DNA of 64,000 nucleotides from Candidatus Angelobacter sp. (GCA_035995565.1 DASYKK010000017.1:2286-66285), one strand, 5' to 3'. Positions 6,710-61,193 are shown, numbered from the stretch's first letter. The notes: a model not told the origin generated them from the letters alone. Numbers and translations: made by a program.

Positions 6710-6976
6710 TCAAATCTGTTTCCTGCTGCAAGGGCGGCCGGCGCATTACCTGGGATTAAGCGACGGGCAAGGCTTGAGTATGCAAAAAACCCAATAAAAA
6801 TCGCATGATTCTCGCATTTTTCTATTTACATAAAATCGGTGACAGGTTATCGTTGGTGAACCTCGCGAGTTGCTCGAATGTCTCCCCTTCCGCAATAGAA
6901 GGCGATCAAGCGCTTGGAACAGCTGTCCCCTGTATTTGCTTTTGCCCAACCCTCAACTCAGGAGAAACACAAAGAT

Positions 6977-8269: not shown

Positions 8270-8296
8270 ATAGCGGCTGAACTTGTGGAAAACGTA

Positions 8297-8330
8297 AGCG
8301 GGATCGAGACATCGGTCCCGCTTTTTACAT
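8297..8330 (+). terminator. intrinsic terminator
   Basis: The stem gcgggatcg / cggtcccgc (9 bp including one G-U) has a 6-nt loop and is followed by tttttacattt. It sits 28 nt after the stop codon. Confidence 0.75.
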
Positions 8331-8497
8331 TTCCCACGCGTTTGCTGGCTTTCCTGCCTCCTGCGGGCCATAAAACCGGATTTCTGGCGCAATTTCGCAT
8401 TTACTTCCAATCCAGAGAAGCGTATTGTTCTTTGGCCAGCTTCTACTCTCAAGTTTGGTATTTGGAGCACCTCAGCTCCCTCTCAGGAGATACACCT

Positions 8498-9901
8498 ATG
8501 TTGAAGACCTCTCGTTACGCGTTACCCTCGCGCGTATTTCTCGGATTCTTACTTTTTATCGGCTTGGCCGGCGTCAGCTTTGCCCAAAACGATATCGCTG
8601 CGCCTAACGGCTCAGCAGGCTATGTAAGAATGCCGGTAGCCGCAATCGACAACTCCACGGGCCAGCCAGTAGGCTCGGCTCCTCTTCTTGTGTTTCCAGA
8701 TGGCGCAGATACCTCTAAAGGCAGCTTTTCCTCCGACGCGAACACGGCCGGCAGCGGGCCGGGAGGCAGTGCTCCGATAAAAACAGCCGCCATTACAACC
8801 AGCTCCGTTGGCGGCGTAATGACCGGATTGGATACAGTGCCGACTTTTACCGGCGCGTTCTTCAATCCTAATCCGTCTATTCTCGGAGCGCGTCCCAACG
8901 GCGTGTTTCCGTTCGTCATGATAGGAAACGATCCTCGCGTCGGCAAGACGACTCGTATCCCGGCCAAGATCACTGAAGTCTCATTGCAGCTGCTGAATGA
9001 TGACGGAACTCTTCGTGCCACCATGCCCTTTGCCCCATTTTCAGATCTCACGGAAGACTCGCCGAATTTTGCGCCGTCCAATTTCACCTCCGGACGCCAT
9101 ATACAGTACGGCGACGCAGTCCACCGCGCTCAATTCTTCAACAGCATGGACGAGGACTGGCATACCGTGTTGAGCGGCCCAACAATCGTGAACCGCGTGA
9201 CCTTCACCATCCCACGCCACGTAAGGGTCCGCTTGCCCAATGGAACCATCGTTTCGGTCCAGGCTTACTTCTTTGGCCATGCACCGAATGGCGATCCTTT
9301 CATTGAATTGCTGGACTTGCTCTTCAACGCCCTCAACACCAATCAGGTCGTGAATGACATCAACGCCGGTAACTTCACTACCGATGCGCTCAATATCAAT
9401 ATGTATCCCAACACGTTCCTGTTTTCGATCAACAATCAGGGACAGTTCGCTGGTTGCTGCGTTCTGGGGTTCCATACTTACTTCTTCGAAAATGGCGTGA
9501 CCCCGCAGCCGCGCTGGATTTTCAACTTTGCCAGCTGGATTTCTCCTGGTCTGTTTGGGGCAGGCTTCCAGGACGTAACTGCGCTTTCTCACGAAGTTGC
9601 AGAAACGATCGCAGATCCATTTGTCAACACGATTGTGCCGACATGGCAATTCCCGGGAGTTCCGCCAACCGCCAAAATTTGTCAGGCAAACCTGGAGGAA
9701 GGCGATCCTATCGAAGTCCTTTCAGTGGCAACCGTGCCGCTAACGCTCAGAGAGCGGCGGGAAGTGTTCACCTATCACCCGCAGATCATACCTTTGCTGC
9801 AATGGTTTGAGATGGGCACGACTTCCGACGCAATCGGCGGCGCGTTCAGCTATCCGGATACGACCACGCTTCCGCATTCCGCGCGGCCCTGCCCGATTTA
9901 A
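8498..9901 (+). CDS. secreted hypothetical protein, paralogue 2 of a tandem pair
   Basis: CAGGAGA RBS and signal peptide ...VFLGFLLFIGLAGVSFAQN. Conserved blocks FPFVMIGNDP, CCVLGFHTYF, DVTALSHEVAETIADPFVN, WQFPG, CQANLEEGDPIEVL, TYHPQ and LLQWF match paralogue 1. Confidence 0.7.
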   Translation: MLKTSRYALPSRVFLGFLLFIGLAGVSFAQNDIAAPNGSAGYVRMPVAAIDNSTGQPVGSAPLLVFPDGADTSKGSFSSDANTAGSGPGGSAPIKTAAITTSSVGGVMTGLDTVPTFTGAFFNPNPSILGARPNGVFPFVMIGNDPRVGKTTRIPAKITEVSLQLLNDDGTLRATMPFAPFSDLTEDSPNFAPSNFTSGRHIQYGDAVHRAQFFNSMDEDWHTVLSGPTIVNRVTFTIPRHVRVRLPNGTIVSVQAYFFGHAPNGDPFIELLDLLFNALNTNQVVNDINAGNFTTDALNINMYPNTFLFSINNQGQFAGCCVLGFHTYFFENGVTPQPRWIFNFASWISPGLFGAGFQDVTALSHEVAETIADPFVNTIVPTWQFPGVPPTAKICQANLEEGDPIEVLSVATVPLTLRERREVFTYHPQIIPLLQWFEMGTTSDAIGGAFSYPDTTTLPHSARPCPI

Positions 9902-9921
9902 GCAGGACTCTGTTTTCAACT

Positions 9922-9955
9922 ATGGCGCCGGTTTCCCCGGCGCCATTTTTGTTTT
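9922..9955 (+). terminator. intrinsic terminator
   Basis: Perfect 10-bp stem atggcgccgg / ccggcgccat with loop tttcc, followed by ttttgtttt. Confidence 0.85.
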
Positions 9956-10177
9956 CCAAGCGAATATCATCCAGGGAAGTTGCCGGGAAGGTAATTTGCA
10001 TCCTGGGAAACCCCCTGATAATCTAACTAAACGGTTAATTAATTCCTTGGGGCAATGTTGTCGTGCCCTTTTTGGTGAGCTTTGAAAGATCAAAATTCGC
10101 ACCGGCAACATAAGCGCATCCCGCCCTGCGCGACGGCATCTAAAATTCGATACCGCGTCAAGAAGGTAAATATACGG

Positions 10178-11620
10178 ATGCAAAGTGTTTGGGTCGTTTT
10201 TTTCATACTTCTGGCTGCCCTTTCTTCCGCTGCTCAACTTCCTGGCTCAGCACCGGCCCCCGGGCCGGACCGCCAGACTCCTGCAGTGACCTCCGCGGTA
10301 CCGCAATCGCTTGACTCATTCAGTGGCAGCGGTAAGGTGGACAAGCTGGTTCCGGGAGTAATTCCGCTATCCCTGCTGGACGCAATCGATCGCGGGCTGA
10401 AACACAACCTGGGCTTACTTCTTTCCCAGCAGCAGACTGAACTGGCCAGAGCGCAATATCGCCGCCAGTTGAGTGCGCTGCTGCCAAATATTTCCGGCAA
10501 CGTCAATGAGTCATTGAACCAGATCAACCTGGCGGCTTTCGGCATTCCGCTGCCCGCAGGATTGAAGTCGCCGGTGGTGGGGCCGTTCGGGATTTTCGAC
10601 GCTCATGCCAACATGAGTGAGACATTGCTCGACTTCAACGCTCTCAACAAAGTCCGCGCGGCCTCTGAAAATGAGAGAGCGGCAAAGTTTACGGTTCAGG
10701 ATGCGCGCGAACTGGTGGTACTGCTGGTCGGCAACCAATACCTGTTGACGGTGGCCAGCGCCACTCGACTGGATACGACCAAAGCCCAGCTCAACACTGC
10801 GCAGACCATCTTCCAGCAGACGCAGGACCTGAAAAAAGCCGGCGTGGCTGCGGGCATTGATGTTTTGCGTTCGCAAGTCCAGATGCAGACGCTACAGCAG
10901 CGCGTGCTGGCCGCGCAGAACCAGTTTGAACAGCAAAAAATGTTGCTGGCACGGACCATTGGAATACCGGTGGCGCAACAGATTCAACTGACTGACACCG
11001 TCCCTTACGCTCCGCTTACGGCTTTGAACCTGGAAGAAGCGTTGGCCCACGCGTACCAGGTACGACCGGAATTTCGGGCGGCGGAATCGCGTGTGCGTTC
11101 GGCTGAACTTTCCGTGAAGGCCGCCAGGGGCGAAGCGCTGCCAACCGTGGAATTGAACGGACAGACTGGCTTCATTGGGCCCGCTCCCGGAACCGCTGAG
11201 AACACATATGCAATTTCCGCCGGCGTGCGCATACCGATCTTTCAAGGCGGCAAGGTAAAAGCGGACGTCGATCAGGCAGCAACCTTGTTGCGGCAGGAAA
11301 GGCTGCAACTGGAAAACCTGCGCAGCCGGGTGGAATATGAAATCCGTTCCGCGCTGCTGGACGTGAAGACCTCTGATGATCAGGTGGCCGTGGCCAATCA
11401 GCAGATCGGTCTTGCGGCTGAACAATTGAAGGAAGCGCAGGACCGCTACAAAGCCGGCGTGTCCGGAAGCCTTGAAGTGGTGCAGGCGCAGGAAGCTGTT
11501 GCCGGCGCGAATGAGAACCACATTCAGGCCCTGTATCAGAACAATGTAGCCAAGCTGACGCTGGTGCGCGCCCTGGGCGAGGCGGAGCAGCGGACGCGAG
11601 CATTCCTGGGAGGAAAATAA
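10178..11620 (+). CDS. TolC-family outer-membrane efflux protein
   Basis: Signal peptide MQSVWVVFFILLAALSSAAQ. Two OEP repeats with typical LSLLDAIDRGLKHNLGL and ...YQVRPEFRAAESR... segments. It is immediately followed by HlyD and MFS genes. Confidence 0.9.
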   Translation: MQSVWVVFFILLAALSSAAQLPGSAPAPGPDRQTPAVTSAVPQSLDSFSGSGKVDKLVPGVIPLSLLDAIDRGLKHNLGLLLSQQQTELARAQYRRQLSALLPNISGNVNESLNQINLAAFGIPLPAGLKSPVVGPFGIFDAHANMSETLLDFNALNKVRAASENERAAKFTVQDARELVVLLVGNQYLLTVASATRLDTTKAQLNTAQTIFQQTQDLKKAGVAAGIDVLRSQVQMQTLQQRVLAAQNQFEQQKMLLARTIGIPVAQQIQLTDTVPYAPLTALNLEEALAHAYQVRPEFRAAESRVRSAELSVKAARGEALPTVELNGQTGFIGPAPGTAENTYAISAGVRIPIFQGGKVKADVDQAATLLRQERLQLENLRSRVEYEIRSALLDVKTSDDQVAVANQQIGLAAEQLKEAQDRYKAGVSGSLEVVQAQEAVAGANENHIQALYQNNVAKLTLVRALGEAEQRTRAFLGGK

Positions 11621-14971: not shown

Positions 14972-17026
14972 CTACTTCGACCAAGTATTCGCGGTTACGA
15001 CACCCACCTCCACAGGAACATGGCTGATAAACTCCCGACCGGCCTTGCGCATTTCATCCGCTACGATCCGTGTAACTGCGTCAGCCTGTTCAGACACTAC
15101 TTCCACAACAATCTCGTCATGGACTGTGTTAACAATCCTAGCATCGTAATTCTGTATCTTATCGAATATATATCTCAAAGCGAGTTTAGTCATATCCGCA
15201 TTCGCACCTTGGATCGGTGTGTTTTTCCCCTGCCGCTCAATGGCTGACACCTTCATTTTGTAGTCTGGATCAGTCTTTAACGGCAAAACATAATAGCGTT
15301 TCCGTCCTAACAGAGTCTTGCTGTAGCCAACCCTATTCGCATGTTCCGCCGCTCTAGCCAGCCAATCAGCTACTTTTGGATATGCCTTGAAATACTGCTC
15401 AATTAGTTTTTCGGCTTCAGGCTTCTCAACCCCAATACGGTCCGCTAACGCGGCCGCACCCATCCCATATGCTAGGCCAAAGTTAATCGCTTTGGCTTGG
15501 GAGCGCTGCACCTTAGAAACCCCATCCAACTTAACTTTAAACATTTTACTTGCAGTAATGGCGTGTAGGTCGCCGCCACTGTTAAACGCTTCACAAAAAC
15601 CCGGATCGCGGGATAGTTGAGCCAGAATTCTAAGCTCTGCTTGGGAATAGTCGCAAGTGATAATCTTCCATCCAGGTGGGGCAATAAAGCACTCCCGAAA
15701 AAAAGCAGGTATCTGCTGCACATTCGGGTGTTGGCAGCTCAATCGGCCGGTCTCAGCTCCATATTGCTTAAAATCCGGGTGAATGCGATTTGTGATCGGA
15801 TTCAATAGCTCTAAAAAGCTATCACCGAATGCGGTTACAACTTTGTCATGTTCGCGAAATTCCAAAAGCTTCTTGGCGGCTGGATGATCAATTTTCGCAA
15901 GAGTTTCTTCTTTTGTGTCTTCAAGTTTAACCCCAAAATGAGCAAAAGCCTCAATAATTTGCTTTTGGCTGGTGATGATCAATACTGTATGCTCGGCACT
16001 ATACAAATGACCATTTGCAGATGCACCTGCGAGCAACGCAAGCACCTCCTTTTCTAATCTGGCTCTCTCAATTTTGTGCTGTGCGATTATTGCTTTCCAT
16101 TTATCTACATCGATCAGCACACCAGCTAGCTCCATTTCGGCAATGGGTTGTATGGCATCGAATTCAATTTTGCTTATGGAGGTTAGACCCTCTGAGTCAA
16201 GTTGTTTTCTTTGCGCATTGTACAAAGGAAACAGGACAGCTACGTCGGTTGCTGCATACTCAAAATGCTCTATTTCTAGTTTATTCGTTTGCTGAAAGCT
16301 AAGTTGTAAACTTTTTTCCAAATCGAGAGCGAAATACAATTTGGAAACAGCTTTCAACGCGCCGGATAGGTGCGTACCTGCTGTTAGCAAGCTGTTCGCC
16401 AACATGGTGTCAAAAATATTATGCAAAGAAACACCCAAATGGACCTTAATGAACTTATAGTCGAAAGCAGCGTTATGAAGGATTTTTACTATCCCTGTAT
16501 TTTGTAGTACGGGCCTAAGCGATGATCCAAGAAAATGCTTATCGATTTTCGTTATGTCAAATATATATATACAATCGGGCGTCGCAATTTGAAGAAGGAT
16601 TAACTTGTGAATATGGGGATCTAATCCAGATGTCTCAGTATCGATCGCGAGTGCCCGTGCGGCGGCAATCGAAGCTATGACTTCCGGGACCTGTCGTGAA
16701 TCATCAATGAGTTTATAAGGTATAGCGATGCGGTTTGTAACTTTATCTATTCTATAGGAATGCCACAATGGAACTCGAAACGGCCCATCCTGTGGCGGGA
16801 CTGAGGCGACGAGCATTTCGCTGCGAGTGCCTGCCGGGTAATCACAATCCGTGCAGGCTCCGTAAACATCAAGATAAACTCGGCCACATCTAGCGCATTT
16901 GTGATAATGCGAAGAGTACCCCGGAATCGGTGACCCACAAGATCCGCAGAGAGGTTCGTCAAAATTCTGATCCCTCTCGTCAGGCAGATTCACGTAATCA
17001 TCGCAATTTGGACATCGAACGCTCAT
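14972..17026 (-). CDS. family-A DNA polymerase (3'-5' exonuclease + polymerase, no 5' nuclease) with N-terminal double zinc ribbon
   Basis: The N-terminus has CPNC...CGSC and CARC...CTDC pairs. Exo motifs: AIDTETSGLD, LHNAAFDYKF, YAATDV. Pol motifs: ETGRLSCQHPNVQQIP, ITCDYSQAELRILA, RSQAKAINFGLAYGMG, VNTVHDEIVVEV. The DNA is visibly more AT-rich than its neighbours (not computed). Confidence 0.85.
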   Translation of the reverse strand: MSVRCPNCDDYVNLPDERDQNFDEPLCGSCGSPIPGYSSHYHKCARCGRVYLDVYGACTDCDYPAGTRSEMLVASVPPQDGPFRVPLWHSYRIDKVTNRIAIPYKLIDDSRQVPEVIASIAAARALAIDTETSGLDPHIHKLILLQIATPDCIYIFDITKIDKHFLGSSLRPVLQNTGIVKILHNAAFDYKFIKVHLGVSLHNIFDTMLANSLLTAGTHLSGALKAVSKLYFALDLEKSLQLSFQQTNKLEIEHFEYAATDVAVLFPLYNAQRKQLDSEGLTSISKIEFDAIQPIAEMELAGVLIDVDKWKAIIAQHKIERARLEKEVLALLAGASANGHLYSAEHTVLIITSQKQIIEAFAHFGVKLEDTKEETLAKIDHPAAKKLLEFREHDKVVTAFGDSFLELLNPITNRIHPDFKQYGAETGRLSCQHPNVQQIPAFFRECFIAPPGWKIITCDYSQAELRILAQLSRDPGFCEAFNSGGDLHAITASKMFKVKLDGVSKVQRSQAKAINFGLAYGMGAAALADRIGVEKPEAEKLIEQYFKAYPKVADWLARAAEHANRVGYSKTLLGRKRYYVLPLKTDPDYKMKVSAIERQGKNTPIQGANADMTKLALRYIFDKIQNYDARIVNTVHDEIVVEVVSEQADAVTRIVADEMRKAGREFISHVPVEVGVVTANTWSK

Positions 17027-17290
17027 CTTGATTGTAATAACCCCTTAGGTATTGTTCATACAACAGGTGGCTTCTTTAAACAAAAGGCTTCTTCGTGTGT
17101 GCCACCGTAGCCATTCGTGCGCATCTTTCACTTCAGAATTGTTTTAGTATATATCGGCAGTGGCTGCGGAACATCAATTGGGCTTAAGATATTGGCGATT
17201 GATGATGTGAAATGCATCGAGGACTGTGCATGAATAACAAATTCGCGTGTCTGCCGGGGTATTTTGATTTAATTTCAACAGACCTTTAGC

Positions 17291-17319
17291 TTGACACAAG
17301 AAGAACCTTCGGATAAAAA
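17291..17319 (+). promoter_or_regulatory. candidate sigma70-type promoter (TTGACA-N17-TAAAAA) upstream of the NusG paralogue
   Basis: ttgaca at 17291-17296, an exact 17-nt spacer, and taaaaa at 17314-17319, in an AT-rich 509-bp divergent intergenic region. This is a motif match only. Confidence 0.3.
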
Positions 17320-17535
17320 TGCCTACACTGCGGATGTAGATAATTAAATTTCTTTGATTAGGCTGGCTTCTCGTCCGGAGCTGTAAGGATCATACAGTCC
17401 GGATGGGGCTGCAATGGCGGTAGCCTGTAATGGTGTTGCCATACCTATTGGCATAACAATGTCCTGCTTTTATGAGTTAAAGAGCAGGAAACAATGGGTT
17501 AATCCTGGATAGACTTCAACTTTCGAGGGACTAGG

Positions 17536-18084
17536 ATGGAAGCACATTGCCCTACTGCGCAAGCATCCGAGTGGTTCGCCGTGCAGGTGAATGGTGGGCG
17601 TGAACACTTGAGTGCCACTCACCTCAGGGTACGCGGCTATGATATTTTTCTGCCATGCTACCCGGAACGCCGTCGCTGGACGGACCGCGTCAAGATCGTA
17701 GATCGTGCCCTTTTTCACGGATACATCTTCGCGCGCGCGATCCCTAATGCAGGGCAAATTGTGAGGGCTCCAGGGGTGATCCGGATCGTTGGGAATCGTA
17801 GCGGACCTGTATACATTCCTCTACGGGACATTGAAGCAATTCAACGTATTATTGACGCGGGGGCTCGGGTCGAGCCGTGCCCGCTACCACAGCCTGGTGA
17901 ACGTGTGTGCATCGAAGAAGGGCCTCTGCGTGGAATCGAGGGTACCGTGGTGGCCTCAAAAGGCGGGCACCGTCTGATTGTCAGCATATCGTTGCTGCAA
18001 CGTGCAGTAGCAGCCGAGATTGATTCGAACTGGCGCATTATACCCAGCTCCTTTTCCCGCACTTATCGGCAAGATTCTAACTAA
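17536..18084 (+). CDS. NusG-paralogue transcription antiterminator (LoaP/TaA/RfaH/UpxY-like): NGN + KOW
   Basis: NGN-like WFAVQVNGGREHLSATHLRVRGYDIFLPCY...LFHGYIFAR...GVIRIVG. KOW-like GERVCIEEGPLRGIEGTVVASKGGHRLIVSISLL. It is not in a secE-nusG-rplK context and is the first gene of the co-directional biosynthetic array. Confidence 0.8.
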   Translation: MEAHCPTAQASEWFAVQVNGGREHLSATHLRVRGYDIFLPCYPERRRWTDRVKIVDRALFHGYIFARAIPNAGQIVRAPGVIRIVGNRSGPVYIPLRDIEAIQRIIDAGARVEPCPLPQPGERVCIEEGPLRGIEGTVVASKGGHRLIVSISLLQRAVAAEIDSNWRIIPSSFSRTYRQDSN

Positions 18085-18308
18085 GCGAGGGCTGCGCCGA
18101 TTCGCTCACCCGGGGCATCTTGCAACCCTTTCCTCAAGACCAACGGCTCGCACTCACGCGGACCATCCTTCTGGATTGCTTGTGTCGGGCTGTCGTAGAA
18201 GCTTTAGATCAAATATAGTCTCCGCAGTGGGACTGAAAGCGGCCTAAATATGCCGCTAACGAGAACAAAGTTCCCGTTACAACGCGCATAACGGGTTAGA
18301 TAGCGTCA

Positions 18309-19115
18309 ATGCCCCACAGTGACCCAGATTTATCCCGACCGGTAGCTGTCCTAAAGGTGTCTCCGTGGCTCATTCGCTCGCCAACTTGCGGAGTCCCGAA
18401 GCTTCGGCTAGCTGCATTTCCTCACGCGGGTGGTGGAGCATCAGGCTTTCGTCGCTTATTTCGCTACCTCCCTGCCGAAGTTGAAGTGATTGGGATTCAG
18501 CTTCCAGGACGCGAAAATCGAGTTCGAGATCCCGCGAGTGGGAGTTTATTCGACTTGCTGCGCGATATTGTTGACAACCTTGCTCCGGCGCTCCAGGACG
18601 ACGTTCCGTTCGTCTTTTTTGGCCATAGTCTGGGCGCTCTTATTGCGTTCGAAGTAACACGGCTGTTCCGTGCGAACCGATTGTGCGGGCCCGCTGCTCT
18701 TATTGTCTCCGGACGCACGCCGCCTCACGTACCCCTGGTCCGCCCCGCCTTGCATGGACTCGCCGACAACGATCTGCTGCGCGAAGTTATCCGGCTCGAT
18801 GGTACACCTCGGGAACTGCAGAGCCACCCCGAAATGCTCAAGCTGATTCTGCCCGTCCTTCGGGCGGACTTAAGACTAGACGAAACCTACGCTTATTCGC
18901 AGGGGCCGCCGCTTGACTGCCCAGTTCTCGCCTGCGGCGGGCAAGACGATTCGGAAGCTCCATTGTCAACAATGCGGGAGTGGGAGATCCACACTTGTGC
19001 AAAATTTGTCCTCAAAACATTCGCAGGCGGGCACTTTTTTATGCATTCGAACTCGGCTCTGTTTAATACAGAACTGGCGTCGTTCTTGCGTAGCGTGACG
19101 CAGGTGATGGTGTGA
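18309..19115 (+). CDS. type II thioesterase (alpha/beta hydrolase, NRPS/PKS editing)
   Basis: LRLAAFPHAGGGASGFRRL, IGIQLPGRENR, nucleophile elbow FFGHSLGALIAFE, and C-terminal GGHFF. Confidence 0.85.
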   Translation: MPHSDPDLSRPVAVLKVSPWLIRSPTCGVPKLRLAAFPHAGGGASGFRRLFRYLPAEVEVIGIQLPGRENRVRDPASGSLFDLLRDIVDNLAPALQDDVPFVFFGHSLGALIAFEVTRLFRANRLCGPAALIVSGRTPPHVPLVRPALHGLADNDLLREVIRLDGTPRELQSHPEMLKLILPVLRADLRLDETYAYSQGPPLDCPVLACGGQDDSEAPLSTMREWEIHTCAKFVLKTFAGGHFFMHSNSALFNTELASFLRSVTQVMV

Positions 19116-19210
19116 CGTCGCGTACTTTGGAATTAGATATCCGGCCAGAACAGGACACGGTGCCCGGCCGATCCGGAACAGACAAGACTTCGTAGGCAGG
19201 TCTCCTAGAT

Positions 19211-21619
19211 ATGTTTTCAATTTTCTACGAGTGGCTGGAAGGGCTGGCGAGGGATTTGAGGTACGGCGCTCGAAACCTGCGTCGAAAGCCTGGGGTCCTG
19301 GTGGTTAGCGCTCTTTCGCTGGGGCTCGGAATCGGCGTGAATACAATTCTCTACATGGGTATCTCCAATATTTACGGACACAAACCAACGATGCACGATC
19401 CAAAGCGTGTCATGGGCGTCGAACTTGGAAACGGGAACCAGTTCTCGTATCCAGATTACCAGGATCTGTTGCGGAGCGGTATCTTCAGCGGCGCGTTGGG
19501 ATTCAGAACAACAACGCTCAATCTCGGTCCCAAAGGGGAAGTGACGCGTGTTGGCGCCACAGTCGTAACGGGGAACTACTTCGAGGTACTTGGCATTTCC
19601 GCGGCAGTCGGACGGATGTTCTCTGGCATTGATGCTCAACCAGAAACCGAACCCCGCGTTGTGGTGGTAACATCCGGGTTTTGGCGCGCCTACCTGAGGG
19701 GCGATTACGCCGCCATAGGTGAGCCAATCGTCCTGAACGGGGAGAGGTTTACCGTGGTCGGTATTCTGCCTGACAACTACCAGGCAGTCACGGGTTGGCG
19801 GGATCGCGGGGTATACGTTCCGCTGAGTAAGTTGATTTTGCCTAGCATCGACCAGCGTGACACGCCGAGTCTCACCGTGTTGGCCCGCTTGCAGCCGAAT
19901 ACATCGGCCGGGCAAGCAGCAAAGGCCGTTACCTCACTGAACGAGTGGCTCCAAAGCAAATATCCAGCCCGGCTGTCGAGCAGAGGACGACCGGCATCCA
20001 TATTCCCCGCGGAAGACCTTCAGTTCCGCGGCGCGCCAGCACAGTTGCTGTTGATGAAGATTGCCTGGGGCACAGCCATTTCCTTGCTTCTCATTTCGTG
20101 CGGCAATGTCGCTGGATTGCTGTTGGCCCGGGGATCAGATCGTCAATACGAGATGGCCATTCGCGGCGCCCTCGGTGCGGGACGTATGCGTGTTGCGCAG
20201 GCGATGCTCGCTGAAAGCTTTTTGCTTGTCATGACTGGAGCAGGAGTGGGTCTTCCATTGGCGTCATTGCTCAATCGAATTCCGATGCCCGCACCCATGA
20301 CGTATGTCCAGGACGCAATGGCGCTCGACAGCCGGGTACTGCCCTATTCTGGGCTACTCATTGGCTTTGCGACGCTCGTCTGCGGTGTGTTCCCAGCTAT
20401 CAGGACAATGCGCATAGACCTGATCGCCGTATTGAATCAGGGCGGCAGATTGTTCACTGCACCACGCGCGTGGTTGCGAGAGCTACTCGTTGCCGGGCAG
20501 GTCGCAATGACATTCATTCTTATAGTAGCGGCACTCTTGTGCGTAAGAAGTCAGATGCTGATTGCGCACGCGGACTTGGGGTTCGACATTGACCACGGAG
20601 TCGTCGCCCAGTTTGGACTTCAGCGCAACCAGTATGAAGGGCAGGATCGAGTTCGGTTAGCCGACCGTCTCACGAAGCGCATTGAGCAGATTCCCAGCGT
20701 AGTATCAGTGAGCGTAGCAGATATCGTGCCGCTGAGTGGCAACGCACTGATCAAGAGCTTCCACCCCGCCGGACGAACTGATATCGCGGGCACCCGCCCG
20801 GACACGTTCAGCGTAGGTCCGGGGTATTTCCGTACCCTGGGTATTCCGTTACTAAGAGGACGTGAGTTCAATGCTTTTGATCAACTTGGTGTCCCCTCTG
20901 TGGTGATTGTCAACGAGACCTTCGCCAGAACGTACTTCTCACGGACGAACATTATCGAAGAGATCGTTCAAACGGCGGGCGAGCGTGATTCCCGCGTGAT
21001 CGGGATCGTGCGGGATCATCGCATCGGCACAATTGGCGAGTCGCCGCGGTCGGTCCTTTACTATTCGTTTGCTCAGCGGCCGACTGAACTGAATCTTCAC
21101 GTGCGCAGTGCTGTGCCGCCGGATGCCCTTGTGGCCGGGGTACAACAGGCCATTCGGGAGATCGACGGAACAATCCCTGTTACGGTGCGGACCCTACACA
21201 ACGCGACAACGCTTGAACTAACCATGCGGCGCAGCGGCATGGTTCTGATGGGCGCATTGGGCGCGGTGGGACTGATATTAGCGGCCGTTGGCCTTTACGG
21301 TGTATTGGCTTATGTCGCTGCATCCCGTACCGGGGATGTCGCGATTCGCATGGCGCTCGGCGCCTCACGCGACCGCATTCGCTGGGAAATGCTGCGACGT
21401 GCTCTGATTGTAGTTTTGCCCAGCGTGGCACTTGGAGTGTGCTTGTCACTTTTAGTCATGCCTGCTTTCAGCACCTTCCTTGCCGGCGTGAACCCCTTGG
21501 ATCCCGTAGCTTTCGGTGGCGCGACGGCCATTTTTTTGCTAACTGGCGTTGCAGCTGGCTATGTTCCGGCGCAACGGAGTGCCCGCCAGGACCCCATGCA
21601 GGTATTCCGACGGCAGTAG
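19211..21619 (+). CDS. ADOP-family duplicated FtsX/MacB-like ABC permease (no adjacent ATPase)
   Basis: The N-terminus DLRYGARNLRRKPGVLVVSALSLGLGIGVNT is typical. There are two MacB-periplasmic-core plus FtsX halves, and the C-terminus ends YVPAQRSARQDPMQVFRRQ. The ~800-aa size fits the acidobacterial duplicated orphan permease family. Confidence 0.85.
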   Translation: MFSIFYEWLEGLARDLRYGARNLRRKPGVLVVSALSLGLGIGVNTILYMGISNIYGHKPTMHDPKRVMGVELGNGNQFSYPDYQDLLRSGIFSGALGFRTTTLNLGPKGEVTRVGATVVTGNYFEVLGISAAVGRMFSGIDAQPETEPRVVVVTSGFWRAYLRGDYAAIGEPIVLNGERFTVVGILPDNYQAVTGWRDRGVYVPLSKLILPSIDQRDTPSLTVLARLQPNTSAGQAAKAVTSLNEWLQSKYPARLSSRGRPASIFPAEDLQFRGAPAQLLLMKIAWGTAISLLLISCGNVAGLLLARGSDRQYEMAIRGALGAGRMRVAQAMLAESFLLVMTGAGVGLPLASLLNRIPMPAPMTYVQDAMALDSRVLPYSGLLIGFATLVCGVFPAIRTMRIDLIAVLNQGGRLFTAPRAWLRELLVAGQVAMTFILIVAALLCVRSQMLIAHADLGFDIDHGVVAQFGLQRNQYEGQDRVRLADRLTKRIEQIPSVVSVSVADIVPLSGNALIKSFHPAGRTDIAGTRPDTFSVGPGYFRTLGIPLLRGREFNAFDQLGVPSVVIVNETFARTYFSRTNIIEEIVQTAGERDSRVIGIVRDHRIGTIGESPRSVLYYSFAQRPTELNLHVRSAVPPDALVAGVQQAIREIDGTIPVTVRTLHNATTLELTMRRSGMVLMGALGAVGLILAAVGLYGVLAYVAASRTGDVAIRMALGASRDRIRWEMLRRALIVVLPSVALGVCLSLLVMPAFSTFLAGVNPLDPVAFGGATAIFLLTGVAAGYVPAQRSARQDPMQVFRRQ

Positions 21620-21656
21620 CCCGCAATCTTAATTGTTTTCTCGGAAAAGGACAGAA

Positions 21657-22190
21657 ATGCACAACATTCTTCGTTTCTTTGCCGGTCTCCTCTTCGTTGC
21701 CAGCTTAGCCGGGTGTGCAAATTACCCAAAGATTCCCGCAACAGGTGCCCCGGCACCGGATTTCCAGCTCATGAACCAAGCCGGCAAAACCGTAAGCTTA
21801 AAGGACTACGCTGGCAAATGGGTCGTACTCTACTTCTATCCCGGGGATTTCGGCAAACGGGGCACCGCAGCGGCGCGCAGTTATCGAGGAAATCTGCGCA
21901 AATTCGAGGAAGAGCAAACAGTCGTCATTGGGATCAGCCAAGATGATGTTTCAACCCATCAGGCTTTTGCCAAAGAGGAACAACTGCCGTTTACACTTCT
22001 TTCAGATGAGGGACAGAAGGTCGCGATGCAATACGGCTCTTTCCGGACGCGTCTGGTGCACACACTTGTGAGCTATCACACCTTTATTATTGATCCAAAA
22101 GGCAAGATCGCCCGTGTGTTTCTCGATCTCGACGCGATGGATCCGAGTGGCCAGATGCTCAGCGCTGTCAGTGCGCTGCAACAGCAGTGA
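21657..22190 (+). CDS. peroxiredoxin (BCP/AhpC-TSA)-fold lipoprotein lacking the peroxidatic cysteine
   Basis: Lipobox LAGC. APAPDFQLMNQAGKTVSLKDYAGKWVVLYFYPGDF...VIGISQDD...FTLLSDEGQKVAMQYG is a clear BCP-like scaffold. The expected DFTPGCT is DFGKRGT, with the Cys position occupied by Gly at 21861-21863. The only Cys in the protein is the lipobox Cys. Confidence 0.75.
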   Translation: MHNILRFFAGLLFVASLAGCANYPKIPATGAPAPDFQLMNQAGKTVSLKDYAGKWVVLYFYPGDFGKRGTAAARSYRGNLRKFEEEQTVVIGISQDDVSTHQAFAKEEQLPFTLLSDEGQKVAMQYGSFRTRLVHTLVSYHTFIIDPKGKIARVFLDLDAMDPSGQMLSAVSALQQQ

Positions 22191-22195
22191 CCCCA

Positions 22196-25100
22196 ATGAC
22201 ATCTCAGCAAATCCTTGACATCGCCATCGAGAGCGGAGTCTTTCTGTACGTTGAAGGCGGCGGTTTAAAGTATCGCGCTCCGGCCGGTAACATGTCCCCG
22301 GAGCTGCGACAACTACTGAAGCAGCATCGCCAGGAAATCATTCTGCACCTCAATAAGATGCAGGTGCAGGCGGTTGGTGATCGCTTCGAGCCCCCGCCGA
22401 TCCAGCGACGTATTGGTAGCGGTCGAGTTCCTCTGTCTTACGCGCAGCAACGGTTTTGGTTCATCGAGCAGTTGGAAAATTGCGGTATCCACATGCGAAG
22501 CGCTCACCGATTGACGGGATCGCTAAACGTCAGGGCTCTGGAAGATGCACTGAACACGATAGTCAATAGACACGAATCGTTGCGGACGGTATTCTTCGAG
22601 GAGAATGGCACGCCATACCAGTTTGTGGTTCCGACCGTCAAGTTCGGCTTGACACGGACGGACTTGTGCAGCCTAAGCGAAAGTGAACAGGAGTCTGAAA
22701 TCCGGCGCCACATAGCAGAGGATGCGCAGCGTCCATTTGATCTGGCGCGCGATCTGATGATCCGGGTCCATCTGCTTGCCTTGTCCCCCGAGGTGCACGT
22801 TGTCATTCTCAACCAGCATCACATCGCCTCGGATGCCTGGTCGCAATGGGTTTTTAGAAGGGAGTTGGTGGAACTCTATCTGGCTTACTGCGAAGGACGC
22901 CCCAACTTAACAGTACCGCTAAAATTGCAATACGCAGACTACACTGTATGGCAACAAGCCTGGCTAAAGGGTGAGGTGCTCGAGCGACAACTCGCTTTCT
23001 GGAAGCGGGCGTTGAAGGGCATACCGGAGGTCCATAACCTGCCACTCGATCATGGGCGGACGACGGGCACGACTCATTCCGGTGGATCAGTAGTTTGCAC
23101 AATTGACGATGAGACGTTGCAAGGCATCCGGGACTTCTGCAATCGCAGAGATGCAACCCTGTTTATGTTCTTTCATACAGCCATGTCAATACTGCTGAGC
23201 CGATACAGCGACGATACCGACATCGTTGTAGGGACGCCGGTTCTGGGCCGCGTTCATCCGGATTTGGAAGCAATGATTGGCCTGTTCGTCAATACCGTCG
23301 TCTTACGACTGAGGCTGGACGGTGACCCGAGTTTCGAGGAGCTGCTGAAGCAAGAAAAGCAGCAACTGCTCGATGCGCTTAACCATCAGCATGTACCTTT
23401 CGAGTTAGTCGTGGAGACTATGAAGCCGCGACGCAGCACTAGTTACAACCCGATATTCCAAGTTCTTTTCAACATGCAACCATTGGACACTGACGGGTTC
23501 GCGCTTCCGGGCCTCAAATATGAAGCACTCGGCGTCGCAGGGATCGGCACATTCGACCTTTCGATTACGGTGATGGAGTCGGTTCATAGTTTGTCAATCC
23601 GCTTCAGCTACAGTAGCGCAGTTTTCCTGGGTGCCACTGTGACGCGCATGGCCAACAACTTCCGAGCTCTCCTATCCAGCATCCTAGACTCACCCAGCCG
23701 GCGGGTCCGTGAACTGGACATGCTTGCACCGATGGAGCGGAATCGTCTGGTGACCGAGCTAAACCAAGGGCGATCCACCCCGGTCTATATCGTCGATTCC
23801 ACTGGCAATCTTATGCCTGAAGGCGGCCACGGAGAGTTATGCGTACCTGCGACGGGTTTGGCTCAGTATTGCAATGACCAAGATCCACGGGACGTCCAAC
23901 GGCAAATGAGGTCCATTCCCAATCCGCTTGCGAGTGCCAGCGACGAGCCTTTGTGGCGAACAGGCGCGCTTGCCCGCTGGTCCCCGACGGGGGAACTGGA
24001 GTTATTCGGAGCGCTCGCTGATCGCACTACAGTTGGTGGCGTGCGCATCAATCTTGCCAGATTCCGAGGAGCCTTGTCGACGACTCCGTGGATAATCCGT
24101 TTCGCGGTGGTTGTGCGTGAGGATGTTTCCGGTTGCGAGATTCTGGTCGCCTACGTTGCCGGCGACAAGAAGGCACTGGCGCCGTTTGAGCACTTTGTGA
24201 CTGAATTACGCATCTCACTGGCCTCGGCTCTCGATGGCCAGGAGGTACGCTTCGCCCTCGCTGTGGTTGATCGACTCCCATTTTTTATCGAGGGGGGGCT
24301 GCAGCTTGATTTGCTCCCGATACCCGAAGACGCCATAAAGCCAAGTGAGCTTTTTGAAGGGGACGCACGAACCGACACGGAGTTGCGAATGGAGCGGATC
24401 TGGCGCACTGTGCTGCCGGACTCACCCCTAAGCAACGTCGACAACTTTTTTGCCGTCGGCGGTCATTCTCTGTCGATGATTGTTCTAATTAAGCGAATCT
24501 CAATGGAGTTTGGCGTCGACATCCCGCTCGCGACCTTTATGGAGGCGCCAACGATCAAAGCGACATCCCGATTCGTCTCTGGCGCACCTACCAGTGGCAA
24601 TGCTACAGATGTGCGTCGGCCGATGAACCAGGCACCGCTGGAGGTTACCGAGTCCGTTGCGACCCGGCAGAACTCGATCCCGCCGCTCAGTCTTGCTGAG
24701 CGCTCGAAGCCCCTGGCGCTGTCTTTTGTTCAGCGAGGACTCCTGTTAAGAATGTGGTCCGCGAAGTCCGAGAGTGGGCGAACCCGCTTTAATATGCCGG
24801 ACAGTCGGCAAATCGTTGGACCCCTTTGCATCGAATCCCTACGCCGAACGTTCGAGACTATCGTCGCCCGTCACGCTATTCTGCGCACTGTCTACAGAGA
24901 GGAGTCCGGCGAACCGGTGCAAGTCATTCTGGCGCCCACCCCTTTTTCTATCCCCTTCATCGATCTGAGTGGGCTAGCGCTGGACGTACAAACGGCTTCA
25001 GTGGGGAAACACGTGCGCGATCACGCTCTACGTCCGTTCGACCTGGCGAGTGAGCCAAGCCTGCGCGTGTTGCTGTTGAAGCTTTCGGATCAACGCCATG

Positions 25101-26089
25101 TGTGCCTCATTAATATTCACCACATCGCCACGGATGGATTTTCCTTCACTGTCTTCATACGAGAGGTTAATGTCATTTACACCGCATACATCAAGGGCAG
25201 GCCCCACTCCTTGCCGGAGCTACCCATTCAGTACTGCGACTATGCTGTTTGGCAACGCGAGTCATTTGCCCGCGGCCTGTTCAATGCAGATATGAAATTC
25301 TGGAGACAGCGCCTCAGCGATCTTGCCTCGGTGCCCGGTCTTCCCCTGGACAAGCCACGGCCACTCGTTGAAAGTCTTAATGGCGCTTATCACCGGACAA
25401 TCGTCAATGCTGAGTTAGTGCGGCGACTGAGTGAACTCAGCCGGTCGCAGAACGGCACTCTATTCATGATCCTGCATGCAATCTTCGCGTTGCTGTTGCA
25501 TGGATACAGTGGTGCAGACGACGTCATCATTGGCGCGCCGGTCGCTAACCGTCATCACCGCGACGTTGAATCTGTCATCGGTTGCTTCACTAACAACCTT
25601 GTTCTCCGGTCCGAGTTCAAGCAGAATCCCTCATTTGTCGACTTCTTGGCGCAAACCATCGACAACGTTCAGCAAGCATTCATTCATCAGAGTGTGCCAT
25701 TCGGTTTGTTGCTTGAGGCGGCCAAACAGCTTAACCCTGAACGAGATCTAAATCAGTTTCCTTTATGTCAGGCGATTTTTACCTTCCAGAACAGCGTAGA
25801 GCGCGAGGCAATCGACCTGCCTGATTTAAAAATTACGCCCCTCGATACCATGGAAATCCTGGACACGCATAACCCGTTCGTCCTGGTGGACTTGGTGCTA
25901 GACGCGGTGCAAACGAGCGGCGGTTTGTCACTCCAGTGGCAGTATGCGACCGACATCTTATCCAAAGGAACGGTTGAATTGCTCGCGGACAGATTCGACG
26001 CCCTGCTGGAAAGTGTTCTCCGTTGGCCAGAAGAACGGGTCAATACCTTGTACTTCACTGCCAGCAACGCTGCACAACAGCTCACATAA
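22196..26089 (+). CDS. NRPS: TubC-type N-terminal docking domain - C - decayed A remnant - T - C
   Basis: Docking-like ILDIAIESGVFLYVEGGGLKYRAPAGNMSPELRQLLKQHRQEIILHL. C1 has PLSYAQQRFWF and HHIASDAWS (22817-22843). The A remnant spans 23780-24325. T has FFAVGGHSL (Ser codon 24467). C2 has HHIATDGFS (25118-25144). The ORF is open from GTG 22187, overlapping the upstream stop. Confidence 0.9.
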   Translation: MTSQQILDIAIESGVFLYVEGGGLKYRAPAGNMSPELRQLLKQHRQEIILHLNKMQVQAVGDRFEPPPIQRRIGSGRVPLSYAQQRFWFIEQLENCGIHMRSAHRLTGSLNVRALEDALNTIVNRHESLRTVFFEENGTPYQFVVPTVKFGLTRTDLCSLSESEQESEIRRHIAEDAQRPFDLARDLMIRVHLLALSPEVHVVILNQHHIASDAWSQWVFRRELVELYLAYCEGRPNLTVPLKLQYADYTVWQQAWLKGEVLERQLAFWKRALKGIPEVHNLPLDHGRTTGTTHSGGSVVCTIDDETLQGIRDFCNRRDATLFMFFHTAMSILLSRYSDDTDIVVGTPVLGRVHPDLEAMIGLFVNTVVLRLRLDGDPSFEELLKQEKQQLLDALNHQHVPFELVVETMKPRRSTSYNPIFQVLFNMQPLDTDGFALPGLKYEALGVAGIGTFDLSITVMESVHSLSIRFSYSSAVFLGATVTRMANNFRALLSSILDSPSRRVRELDMLAPMERNRLVTELNQGRSTPVYIVDSTGNLMPEGGHGELCVPATGLAQYCNDQDPRDVQRQMRSIPNPLASASDEPLWRTGALARWSPTGELELFGALADRTTVGGVRINLARFRGALSTTPWIIRFAVVVREDVSGCEILVAYVAGDKKALAPFEHFVTELRISLASALDGQEVRFALAVVDRLPFFIEGGLQLDLLPIPEDAIKPSELFEGDARTDTELRMERIWRTVLPDSPLSNVDNFFAVGGHSLSMIVLIKRISMEFGVDIPLATFMEAPTIKATSRFVSGAPTSGNATDVRRPMNQAPLEVTESVATRQNSIPPLSLAERSKPLALSFVQRGLLLRMWSAKSESGRTRFNMPDSRQIVGPLCIESLRRTFETIVARHAILRTVYREESGEPVQVILAPTPFSIPFIDLSGLALDVQTASVGKHVRDHALRPFDLASEPSLRVLLLKLSDQRHVCLINIHHIATDGFSFTVFIREVNVIYTAYIKGRPHSLPELPIQYCDYAVWQRESFARGLFNADMKFWRQRLSDLASVPGLPLDKPRPLVESLNGAYHRTIVNAELVRRLSELSRSQNGTLFMILHAIFALLLHGYSGADDVIIGAPVANRHHRDVESVIGCFTNNLVLRSEFKQNPSFVDFLAQTIDNVQQAFIHQSVPFGLLLEAAKQLNPERDLNQFPLCQAIFTFQNSVEREAIDLPDLKITPLDTMEILDTHNPFVLVDLVLDAVQTSGGLSLQWQYATDILSKGTVELLADRFDALLESVLRWPEERVNTLYFTASNAAQQLT
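23780..24325 (+). other. decayed adenylation-domain remnant (C-terminal third only, core motifs degenerate)
   Basis: The C domain runs directly into PVYIVDSTGNLMPEGGHGELCVPATGLAQY (A6-like). Then come WRTGALARW (A7, Asp lost), GALADRTTVGGVRINLARFRGAL (A8 degenerate) and LPFFIEGGLQLDLL (A10, Lys lost). The A1-A5 motifs and binding pocket are absent. Confidence 0.7.
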
Positions 26090-26090
26090 A

Positions 26091-27110
26091 ATGAATGGAA
26101 ATGCAAGAGGGAACGCCGTGTATGGTTTTGAGGCAAATGCCGATTCGGGGCATGATGTGCTGTGGAGGGGGCTCCCACACTCGAATTTTTACAGGCAGAT
26201 GAAGCTTACAGGGTCGACCACACTAGAATTGACGGGCGAAACGGAGCTAGAACGTCGTGCCTGCCGCTTGGACGTGGATCGCCATGCTGCGTTGGGCGCG
26301 TTTATAAACGCTAGTGGGCTGCATTTCACTACAATTATGCTTGGCATCTACCATGTAGTGCTGCAGTGGTATCTCGGAGATGTTGAGAGTATCATCGGCT
26401 GCTGCTTGCTGGAAAACGGCACGCCTCAAGGCGCCGAGGGCGGAATCCCGATAGTCCGATTGCGTCCCAGCTATGTGTACGCCGAGGATGATGATCGCAT
26501 CGAGGATGTGTTGCGAGATATCGAAGAGCGGCGCGCCGGACACCCTGTCGAAGTCGATATAGACACTTGTTCGTCGTGGACTTCCAAACGCGCTCCCACC
26601 TTTTACTATGTGGGTATTGAGGGCAGGGGCTTGAGCCATTCCGATACTGTAAACATCGCGGCCAGCCACTTGCCATTCCGTGTGATCGTCGGAGCTGCAA
26701 CGGAGGTAAATGGAACGGAACTCAGTATATCCATACCGTCCGCCATATCTCATGCGATCCCAATGCAAGACTTCCACCGGCGGCACGATACTGCACTTTC
26801 CTCATTGCTCGCGGGGAATTGTTCGCTGGTTGGTGAACTCAAGGCGCAGTTAGGCGACGCTGCGGAGGTCCCGTATCATCAGATCGAAGAAATGCAACAG
26901 AGAGTGATTACCCTTTGGGCTACGGTGCTCGGCATCCCAAAGGAGAAGGTAGACGCAACCTCGAATTACTACGAGTTGGGGGGAACATCCCTCAATGCGT
27001 TTCGGCTTGTCAATCGCGTGCGTCTGGAGTTGAAGCGTGACCTGAGCATCTGGGACATCGTAGAGAATCCGACCGTGGAACAGTTGTCACTGGCCCTGCT
27101 CAGGGACTAA
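26091..27110 (+). CDS. stand-alone carrier protein (PCP) with ~260-aa N-terminal region of uncertain function
   Basis: ATG lies 1 nt after the upstream TAA. The C-terminal segment is RVITLWATVLGIPKEKVDATSNYYELGGTSLNAFRLVNRV (PCP, GGxS). The N-terminal part (…GLHFTTIMLGIYHVVLQWYLGDVESIIGCC…) weakly resembles the C-terminal half of a condensation domain and has no HHxxxDG. Confidence 0.7.
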   Translation: MNGNARGNAVYGFEANADSGHDVLWRGLPHSNFYRQMKLTGSTTLELTGETELERRACRLDVDRHAALGAFINASGLHFTTIMLGIYHVVLQWYLGDVESIIGCCLLENGTPQGAEGGIPIVRLRPSYVYAEDDDRIEDVLRDIEERRAGHPVEVDIDTCSSWTSKRAPTFYYVGIEGRGLSHSDTVNIAASHLPFRVIVGAATEVNGTELSISIPSAISHAIPMQDFHRRHDTALSSLLAGNCSLVGELKAQLGDAAEVPYHQIEEMQQRVITLWATVLGIPKEKVDATSNYYELGGTSLNAFRLVNRVRLELKRDLSIWDIVENPTVEQLSLALLRD

Positions 27111-30106: not shown

Positions 30107-30110
30107 GACC

Positions 30111-31244: not shown

Positions 31245-31246
31245 GG

Positions 31247-32263: not shown

Positions 32264-32323
32264 CAGCATTCAGTGTTCCTCATACCGCTCGCTAGTCTGT
32301 CGTCAGTGCGAGATCATACGGCG

Positions 32324-32688
32324 ATGGCGAAGAGGGCGAGACTGCTGGAGACCGAACGCCACTGGTTGCGCGTGTTGGGCACGTTGAATGAAGGAAGCAG
32401 GCGTGTTTGTCGCCCATAAAGCGCTGGCAGAAGGACACGGAGCGGTCAGCCGTCTAGTCCGGCTCACGAGCATGCTGCGGCCCACCTTTTTTTAAAGGTA
32501 TGGAGGAGTTGGAGGCCGGTCGCTTGCCCTACCGGAAAGAGGACGACTTCGCTGCGTGGGCGGCGGATGGAAGGGAATCGAGGAAGCCGATCCCCCGTCA
32601 AGTGAAGCCTCACAAGTTTCACGGCGACTTGAACTACACCTTCCATCTGTGGGACTCGGCGGTGATTTCGGATATTGTAATTTTGTAA
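32324..32688 (+). pseudogene. relic of an ISAzo13-family (DDE) transposase: frameshifted N-terminal HTH part joined to the extreme C-terminus
   Basis: Three frames read consecutively: MAKRARLLETERHWLRVLGTLNEGSRR / GVFVAHKALAEGHGAVSRLVRLTSMLRPTFF / KGMEELEAGRLPYRK...PHKFHGDLNYTFHL. The first parts align with the LDERxRRLxAAAEAxAxGxGGISxVSRATGVSRxxIxxGxxEL N-terminus I recall for this family. The last part resembles the FHGEWNYTI C-terminal motif. The frames change near 32400 and at the T-run at ~32487-32493. Confidence 0.5.
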
Positions 32689-32722
32689 ATTTTATTTTTC
32701 TGACAGATCCCAAGCCGAGAGC

Positions 32723-60574: not shown

Positions 60575-60580
60575 GGAGTT

Positions 60581-61192: not shown

Positions 61193-61193
61193 A

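Follow-up and report, generated by a model that had tools for sequence, protein, structure and literature searches.

NusG paralogs that pair with a recruitment site in the leader of a target operon are already known, with RfaH and UpxY acting on DNA elements, and LoaP and TaA serving polyketide clusters. The UpxY proteins of Bacteroides are recruited at opsX elements of ~40 bp, which lie in the leader upstream of their own gene and contain a YGCGNAGCR hairpin with a loop base that differs from one cognate pair to another; the corresponding E. coli hairpin is GCGGTAGC (PMC11685472). In the ops element of E. coli, the substitutions G4C, G5A, A7T, and G8C abolish RfaH recruitment and C3G and T6A cut it approximately 3-fold, C3:G8 is the architectural pair of the non-template hairpin, and pausing is due to the TG at positions 11/12 (PMC5995543). 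LoaP of Bacillus velezensis and TaA of Myxococcus xanthus are NusG paralogs encoded beside very long polyketide or hybrid clusters and are needed for their expression (PMC7819879). Here, we analyzed a 64,000-nt stretch of DNA from Candidatus Angelobacter sp. (GCA_035995565.1 DASYKK010000017.1:2286-66285), referred to as the window, in which a gene for a NusG paralog (17536-18084, + strand) heads a long same-strand array of biosynthetic genes and is preceded by an ops-like element that is conserved among its relatives. An earlier reading of this DNA (the original prediction) had taken the gene for a specialized, LoaP/TaA-like NusG paralog serving as the first gene of a biosynthetic array, and had proposed that its leader be searched for an ops-like or hairpin recruitment element.

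RESULTS

An ops-like element in the leader is conserved across related loci

The leader upstream of the paralog gene is 509 nt long and contains the extended element TGGGGCTGCAATGGCGGTAGCCTGTA (17404-17429, + strand), which scores 32.6 bits with the position weight matrix (PWM) described below. Its ops-like core, GGCGGTAGCCTG (17416-17427, + strand), includes an exact GGCGGTAG, agrees with the E. coli ops sequence GGCGGTAGCGTG at 11 of 12 positions, and lies 109 nt ahead of the paralog ATG. The core is predicted to form a non-template mini-hairpin through the pairs G2:C9 and C3:G8, with GGTA as the loop, and carries the pause signal G1G2...T11G12. The search proposed in the original prediction thus yielded an ops-like element, and one that is conserved in relatives of the locus.

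Within the window, GGCGGTAG is not significantly enriched (3 matches versus 1.4 expected), so conservation across loci was needed as the test. The copies at 41788 and 51041 were taken as chance occurrences, since neither has the extended motif and both score less than 11 bits by the PWM. The element at 17404-17429 is the sole strong PWM match in the 64-kb window; the next one (18.2 bits) is antisense and falls inside a nonribosomal peptide synthetase (NRPS) gene.

Homologous loci were collected from genomes, metagenomes, and encoding contigs, leaving 58 loci (534 kb) after the removal of near-duplicates. In 16,969 nt of leaders, the sense strand held 27 copies of the motif GGCGG[TC]AGC, compared with 0.315 expected from the rest of the loci (Poisson P of ~2e-42), and the antisense strand held none. 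With a 26-nt PWM and a threshold of at least 20 bits, the 58 loci contained 43 sites, 42 of them on the paralog strand, and three block-shuffled copies of all loci contained none. The training set of the PWM comprised 31 of these sites, and the remaining 12 were found independently. The family consensus of the extended element is approximately TGGGACTTCAATGGCGGYAGCCTG.

The pattern of constraint over the 43 sites was then compared with what is known of ops function. G2, C3, G4, and G8 are present in 43/43 sites, G5 and A7 in 42/43, G1 in 40/43, and C9 in 38/43. Position 6 is C in 30 sites and T in 11, position 10 is unconstrained, and positions 11 and 12 are a pyrimidine and a purine, respectively, at every site. 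Judged by sequence, this pattern reproduces the functional map of the E. coli ops element. RNAalifold, applied to 31 sites, predicted only the pairs G2:C9 and C3:G8.

The element lies within 330 nt upstream of the paralog gene in 33 of the 58 loci and is present somewhere in 39. Some of the other placements follow the operon rather than the gene: a full copy is found just past the paralog gene in three loci (L009, L020, and L029), and the element is 0.75 to 3.6 kb upstream on the same strand in three more (L006, L034, and L062). Two loci have a second element in the same cluster, ahead of a PanD-thioesterase operon in L064 and ahead of an operon for an ABC transporter, PhyH, and a TonB receptor in L065. 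In every case, the element has the orientation of the operon ahead of which it lies. If the element is a recruitment site, it should be sense to its operon, and L066 bears this prediction out: there, the paralog gene is divergent from the NRPS operon, and the only strong element, which is the one site of the 43 off the paralog strand, shares the orientation of the NRPS operon and occupies the gap ahead of its adenylation and NRPS genes. L053 (~8470-10500) has two tandem NusG paralog genes upstream of an NRPS gene, each with an element of its own (17.2 and 25.3 bits).

Promoters upstream of the element and structure in the leader

In the window, a sigma70-like promoter (TTGACA-18 nt-AAAAAT; 17291-17320, + strand) with 10/12 matches, the best in 16900-22400, ends 95 nt upstream of the ops-like core and predicts a transcription start near 17327. 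A TTGACA-16-TAAAAT promoter ends 56 nt upstream of the core in L007, and a canonical sigma54 promoter (TGG[CT]A-N6-TTGC) is found 47 to 57 nt upstream of it in six loci (L008, L042, L044, L049, L054, and L060). Because these sigma54 or sigma70-like promoters lie upstream of the element, the element is expected to be transcribed. At the sigma54 loci, the arrangement implies that enhancer-dependent initiation is coupled with paralog-dependent elongation. The elements preceded by a sigma54 promoter are of the T type at position 6, and two of these loci (L008 and L049) proved to be exopolysaccharide operons.

The leader RNA of the window is strongly folded, with a minimum free energy of -74.4 kcal/mol for 17327-17540 versus -57.2 ± 4.1 kcal/mol for shuffled sequences (z of -4.2). 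A strong hairpin, GUCCGGAGCUGUA...UACAGUCCGGAU (17370-17407, + strand), abuts the element, and a second hairpin is present at ~17461-17494. No Rfam match was found in the leader at E ≤ 1. In L067, which is the nearest relative with a usable contig and whose paralog protein is 67% identical, the hairpin at 17370-17407 is not present, making it specific to the window locus. The two leaders share only two conserved blocks, the -35 block CTTGACACA and the element. The hairpins of the window leader may be locus-specific regulatory features.

The paralog belongs to a distinct family closest to UpxY

The gene at 17536-18084 encodes 182 aa from an ATG start, 5 nt upstream of which a Shine-Dalgarno-like GAGGGA was recognized by sequence reading (17525-17530, + strand), and the N-terminus MEA..C is also present in homologs. 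Pfam identified an NGN domain (PF02357; residues 12-102, nt 17569-17841) with 51.5 bits versus a cutoff of 22.2. The Pfam KOW model gave no match in the 182-aa protein, and the KOW-type β-barrel domain (residues ~114-169, nt 17875-18042) is supported by three other lines: models of NusG paralogs align over the full length (residues 13-164), the family profile aligns residues ~114-169 with solved NusG KOW domains, and AlphaFold predicts a five-strand β domain there, including strands at 122-126, 135-141, 144-151, and 156-162, with a predicted local distance difference test score (pLDDT) of 80 to 87 (84.9 as the mean of the whole model). The top Foldseek matches of the model were exclusively NusG, RfaH, and Spt5 proteins, and the modeled NGN domain superposes on that of ops-bound RfaH with a TM-score of 0.83 and a root mean square deviation of 1.6 Å. 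The protein is thus a member of the NusG/Spt5 superfamily with both the NGN and the KOW domain, just as the original prediction had described it, and its ORF was delimited exactly there.

Scores from curated NCBIfam models, standing in for a phylogeny against LoaP, UpxY, and ActX, placed the protein nearest to UpxY. The UpxY family model (NF033644) gave the best score, 90.9 bits, which is below its cutoff of 100. The scores for LoaP (NF033641; 51.2 bits versus a cutoff of 125), RfaH (TIGR01955; 51.1 versus 144.5), and the housekeeping NusG (TIGR00922; 33.5 versus 135.7) likewise remained below the cutoffs. All 41 of the 41 aligned family members ranked the models alike, with UpxY first (best E-value, 9e-33), RfaH and LoaP next, and NusG lowest. 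In the reverse direction, the family profile scored higher on E. coli NusG (78 bits) than on E. coli RfaH (45 bits). This is a distinct paralog family, closest to UpxY by the curated models and orthologous to no named one. The failed NusG model, the linkage of the family to operons, and the conserved leader element bear out the view that the protein is specialized rather than housekeeping. The proposed likeness to LoaP did not stand at the sequence level, given the low score with the LoaP model and a cis element that resembles the DNA type of RfaH and UpxY rather than a LoaP-type RNA hairpin.

The family is large and nearly all metagenomic. It comprises 82 relatives at 90% clustering, and a 50%-identity library gave 81 cluster representatives at E ≤ 1e-30, a number that rose to 2,973 at E ≤ 1e-10. 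When a collection of genomes was scanned with 17 closer family sequences, the relatives in named genomes (35 to 58% identity) came from metagenome-assembled genomes (MAGs) of Acidobacteriota (Bryobacteraceae, Blastocatellia, and Terriglobia), with weaker ones (~30% identity) in MAGs of Binataceae and Proteobacteria. Judged by its nearest named relatives, the family is probably of acidobacterial origin.

Residues for DNA recognition and autoinhibition are only partly those of RfaH

We aligned 48 family sequences to E. coli RfaH (identical to PDB 2OUG) and NusG and compared the residues that contact ops or hold RfaH in its autoinhibited state. Among the RfaH contacts K10, H20, R23, and R73, the family keeps only H20, which is His in 31/48 sequences (H29 in the window protein). 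The position of K10 is Trp or Arg in the family (N19 in the window protein), that of R23 is variable, and that of R73 is Pro in 42/48 (P79), as in NusG. A further contact, Q24, is replaced by Arg or Lys in 45/48 (R33). As for autoinhibition, the positions of E48 and F130 hold Arg (R57) and Val (V138), respectively, as in NusG, and that of I93 is Ile in 40/48 (I99). These NusG-like residues and the predicted β-type KOW domain suggest that the paralog has no RfaH-type autoinhibition by fold switching.

The protein column that best separates elements with T at ops position 6 from those with C is that of RfaH Q24, with Lys in 7/10 of the T-type and Arg in 18/18 of the C-type loci, a correlation that is confounded by phylogeny and that the window, which combines T with Arg, does not follow. 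The column hints at co-variation between protein and element.

Relatives of the paralog head NRPS/PKS and other operons

NRPS or polyketide synthase (PKS) genes follow or flank the paralog gene in the window, in six other loci (L006, L007, L025, L053, L064, and L066), and on the P0015 and P0017 contigs. In related loci, the distance from the paralog gene to the same-strand NRPS genes downstream is 0.1 to 6 kb. In L025 and L036, it is followed by a MacB-type permease gene, as in the window, and in L067, it adjoins an MbtH gene. More distant members (35 to 45% identity) head exopolysaccharide operons with genes for a sugar transferase, a Wzz/GNVR kinase, and Wzy, one relative heads a sugar-nucleotide operon, and another heads a radical-SAM/SPASM operon. 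Two relatives look like orphans, with no element nearby. The sequence comparisons suggest that the family is a general operon-licensing factor, not restricted to NRPS/PKS clusters, and the sub-clade containing the window protein is often tied to such clusters.

A Response_reg gene is often found just upstream of the paralog gene (L001, L003 to L005, L064, and the P0017 contig), but not in the window. The proteins that these genes encode have either no recognized output domain or one of the AraC type.

The gene array of the window and its surroundings

The paralog gene opens a same-strand array (17536-62840, + strand) of ~45 kb, with megasynthase ORFs that sum to ~31 kb. In the original prediction, ~46 kb of megasynthase genes had been placed immediately after it. 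Its position at the head of a ~45-kb same-strand array holds, but thioesterase, permease, and peroxiredoxin genes precede the megasynthases. By Pfam, and all on the + strand, the genes that follow encode a type II thioesterase (18309-19115), a MacB/FtsX permease (19211-21619), an AhpC/TSA peroxiredoxin (21633-22190), the first NRPS (C-T-C, 1,300 aa; 22187-26089), a carrier protein with the carrier domain at the C-terminus only (25944-27110), an adenylation enzyme (27117-29201), tailoring and unknown proteins (29198-33703), an ABC exporter (33848-35659), a PKS of 4,139 aa with an AprA-like loading module (35708-48127), an NRPS with a thioesterase domain (48171-52364), and an NRPS-PKS hybrid (52361-60070); three small genes (60101-62840, + strand) complete the array. 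The megasynthase genes are thus interrupted at 29198-35659 by tailoring, unknown, and ABC transporter genes. Neighboring genes in the array mostly overlap or are less than 50 nt apart, and the only larger gaps are those at 18085-18308 (224 nt) and 32264-32722 (459 nt). Neither promoter-like nor terminator-like sites inside the array were in excess over shuffled sequences. No conserved small gene that might encode an UpxZ-type partner was seen after the paralog gene on inspection of the ORFs; it is followed by genes such as those for the thioesterase, the MacB-type permease, and the NRPSs.

Several features of the array are of interest in themselves. The PKS at 35708-48127 starts with Pfam AprA_N, WH_AprA, and AprA MT2-like domains and further methyltransferases. 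Loading machinery of the AprA type makes t-butyl/pivaloyl-type starter units in cyanobacterial apratoxin, and its presence is surprising for a cluster of probable acidobacterial origin. The NRPS ORF at 22187-26089 and the ORF at 25944-27110 overlap by 146 nt (25944-26089) in different frames, either because the second gene in fact begins further downstream or because a frameshift splits one NRPS gene. Five ORFs of 302 to 538 aa on the + strand have no Pfam match, three of them inside the array (29198-30106, 30036-31244, and 32723-33703) and two upstream (6914-8269 and 8285-9901), adjoining an OEP/HlyD/MFS efflux set.

The secE-nusG-rplKA context of a housekeeping nusG is absent, as the original prediction had noted, and the paralog gene has instead the type II thioesterase gene on one side and a divergent gene for a family-A DNA polymerase (684 aa; 14972-17026, - strand) on the other. 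This polymerase combines a 3'-5' exonuclease domain with a Cys-rich N-terminus that resembles a zinc ribbon, and it lacks a 5'-3' exonuclease domain. The region 15000-17400 is low in GC (42 to 47%) and is flanked by DNA of 54 to 60% GC, a contrast suggesting that the DNA around the polymerase gene, at the boundary of the cluster, is foreign or mobile in origin.

DISCUSSION

The analysis establishes the protein family and the order of the genes, and it shows that the element is conserved, how it is oriented, and where it lies. On these comparisons, we think it probable that the paralog acts as an antiterminator, encoded within its own operon and loaded where RNA polymerase pauses at an ops-type site, with a layout like that of UpxY and a signal like that of RfaH. 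The paralog gene would be the first gene of a transcription unit under its own control, with transcription starting at the sigma70-like promoter at 17291-17320. Approximately 90 nt downstream of the start, RNA polymerase would meet the ops-type core, where G1G2 and T11G12 would cause it to pause, and the exposed non-template strand would fold into the GC/GC mini-hairpin and display the GGTA loop. The NGN domain would bind the paused complex, oust the housekeeping NusG, and stay on the polymerase, and transcription over the ~45-kb array would become processive and withstand Rho-type polarity or termination. We infer pausing, non-template DNA binding, antitermination, and transcription of the array as a single unit. 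Since the paralog gene begins 109 nt past the element, the circuit would be positively autoregulated, as in the UpxY operons of Bacteroides. The paralog would be constitutively "open," with a β-type KOW domain and no RfaH-type autoinhibition, and its specificity would consequently rest on the extended ~24-nt element, as in UpxY.

Several results weigh against this interpretation. No notable intrinsic terminators were found within the array, and intrinsic terminators were rejected as antitermination targets because terminator-like sites are not commoner there than in shuffled sequences; by analogy with RfaH, very long genes probably present an obstacle in the form of Rho-type polarity, and this would be what is overcome. 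The gaps of 224 and 459 nt may hold internal promoters. The element is absent from the available sequence in 19 of the 58 loci, i.e., approximately a third. The contact residues of RfaH are partly lost, so that, judging from the alignment, the DNA must be read in a way that differs in detail from that of RfaH. Lastly, the β state of the KOW domain is an AlphaFold prediction.

Other explanations of the conserved element were considered. It could work as RNA, with a leader RNA motif or hairpin being read by the paralog, perhaps by its KOW domain, and the likeness to ops reflecting a shared pause sequence. LoaP reportedly requires a leader RNA hairpin, according to what PMC11685472 relates of it, the leader RNA of the window is unusually structured (z of -4.2), and sequence by itself does not separate DNA from RNA recognition. 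The GGGAC block also pairs with upstream sequence at 3.44 of 5 positions, compared with 3.06 in shuffles, a small excess. However, RNAalifold found no covarying helix other than the two pairs of the ops hairpin, conservation is at the level of sequence and runs base by base along the DNA contact map of RfaH and ops, the large hairpin of the window is not kept in its closest relative, and the LoaP model reached ~51 of the 125 bits of its cutoff. We therefore regard recognition as RNA as unlikely. The sequence upstream of the core was also examined for a pause hairpin conserved in the RNA; RNAalifold found none, and with so weak an excess of pairing, we do not claim one.

The element might also be a promoter or operator unrelated to the paralog, either a sigma54-like -24/-12 sequence (TGGGAC-N5-TGGC, which loosely resembles TGGCAC-N5-TTGC) or a site for a response regulator, whose genes lie just upstream in several loci. 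This would be very hard to reconcile with the data, and we give it little credence: the strongest conservation is in GGCGGYAGC, downstream of the expected -12 GC, the window has no response-regulator neighbor, and an 11/12 match to ops beside a NusG paralog is very unlikely as a coincidence. Moreover, separate canonical sigma54 promoters stand upstream of the element in six loci, as do sigma70-like promoters (55 to 95 nt upstream) in the window and L007. The element as a sigma54 promoter was rejected on account of these separate promoters and of a conservation peak outside -24/-12. A different possibility accepts both paralog and element but confines their action to the control or fine-tuning of the proximal genes, i.e., the paralog gene itself and those for the thioesterase and the permease, with the megasynthases transcribed from internal promoters. 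The two larger gaps in the array could house such promoters, and L064 and L065 have separate elements for separate operons of one cluster, where the window has a single one. On the other hand, most of the junctions in the array overlap or are shorter than 50 nt, promoter-like sites are not in excess inside it, and in related loci, the paralog gene stands 0.1 to 6 kb upstream of same-strand NRPS genes, which makes a purely proximal role rather improbable in our view.

Beyond this locus, one can picture Acidobacteriota, possibly with neighboring soil phyla, as harboring a large undescribed family of operon-embedded NusG paralogs that use the RfaH-type ops non-template hairpin. Recognition of ops would then be older and wider than the proteobacterial RfaH lineage, and the base at position 6 (T or C) and the block of 12 nt upstream would together serve as a cognate code for licensing individual secondary-metabolite and exopolysaccharide operons, like the Y-opsX pairs of Bacteroides but with NRPS/PKS clusters as targets. 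We put this forward tentatively, as a conjecture that may well prove wrong.

A literature search combining Acidobacteria or Acidobacteriota with NusG paralog, ops, antiterminator, or biosynthetic gene cluster returned no description of such a system. Wang et al. (2020) reported matches to the RfaH model in 23 phyla, with Acidobacteria not discussed in the main text, and proposed that the DNA-contact residues were acquired stepwise. The present family has the ops sequence without K10 and R73, which bears on how sequence-specific recruitment of NusG paralogs evolved. What appears to be new, from the sequence comparisons, is the combination of an RfaH-type ops core with an UpxY-like, operon-embedded, and apparently non-autoinhibited protein, as well as the use of such a pairing for NRPS/PKS clusters and its occurrence in what is probably a phylum for which the literature search above found no NusG paralog described.

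Few sources of unexplored NRPS/PKS clusters are as rich as the Acidobacteria, or as difficult to work with, and most of their clusters stay silent or do not function when moved to a heterologous host. An elongation factor that is encoded in the cluster and has a defined loading site of 24 nt would offer a handle for switching such clusters on. It also provides a testable rule for expression, namely, to retain the ops-like leader and co-express the paralog, or to move the pair ahead of other long operons.

Compared with the described systems, the family joins two of them, having the layout of UpxY (first gene, extended element, and apparently no autoinhibition) and the signal of RfaH (GCGGYAGC hairpin and TG pause). 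As with UpxY, the paralog heads the operon that it would control, with the recruitment element in the leader ahead of its own gene; the element is an extended one (~24 nt here and ~40 bp in Bacteroides) with a GCG...AGC non-template hairpin and a variable loop base, and distant members of the family head exopolysaccharide operons. Unlike UpxY, it occurs in a different phylum (probably Acidobacteriota), many of its targets are NRPS/PKS clusters, and its core is GCGGYAGC of the E. coli type with a 4-nt loop rather than YGCGNAGCR.

The likeness to RfaH is in the signal and part of the protein: ops (GGCGGTAGnnTG) stands in the leaders of RfaH targets, and the core here differs from it at one of 12 positions and shares its invariant bases, its C3:G8 and G2:C9 pairs, and its TG pause, while the protein has His at the position of H20, lacks the NusG-specific insertion, and has an NGN domain that superposes on that of ops-bound RfaH. 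It departs from RfaH in not keeping K10 and R73, in the NusG-like positions of E48 and F130, and in a C-terminal domain predicted to be a β-barrel rather than an α-hairpin. Position 6 of its element is usually C, and it is encoded inside its target operon, whereas RfaH is a lone gene with dispersed targets.

By their placement next to long clusters, LoaP and TaA are functional analogs. Nevertheless, LoaP is reported to act through a leader RNA hairpin and on intrinsic terminators, in contrast to the ops-like signal here, for which RNAalifold gave no covarying RNA helix. With the housekeeping NusG, the family shares the two-domain NGN-KOW fold, Pro at the position of RfaH R73, and the β-type KOW domain, but it lacks the NusG insertion between α1 and β2, and its genes are linked to specific operons with a dedicated leader element.

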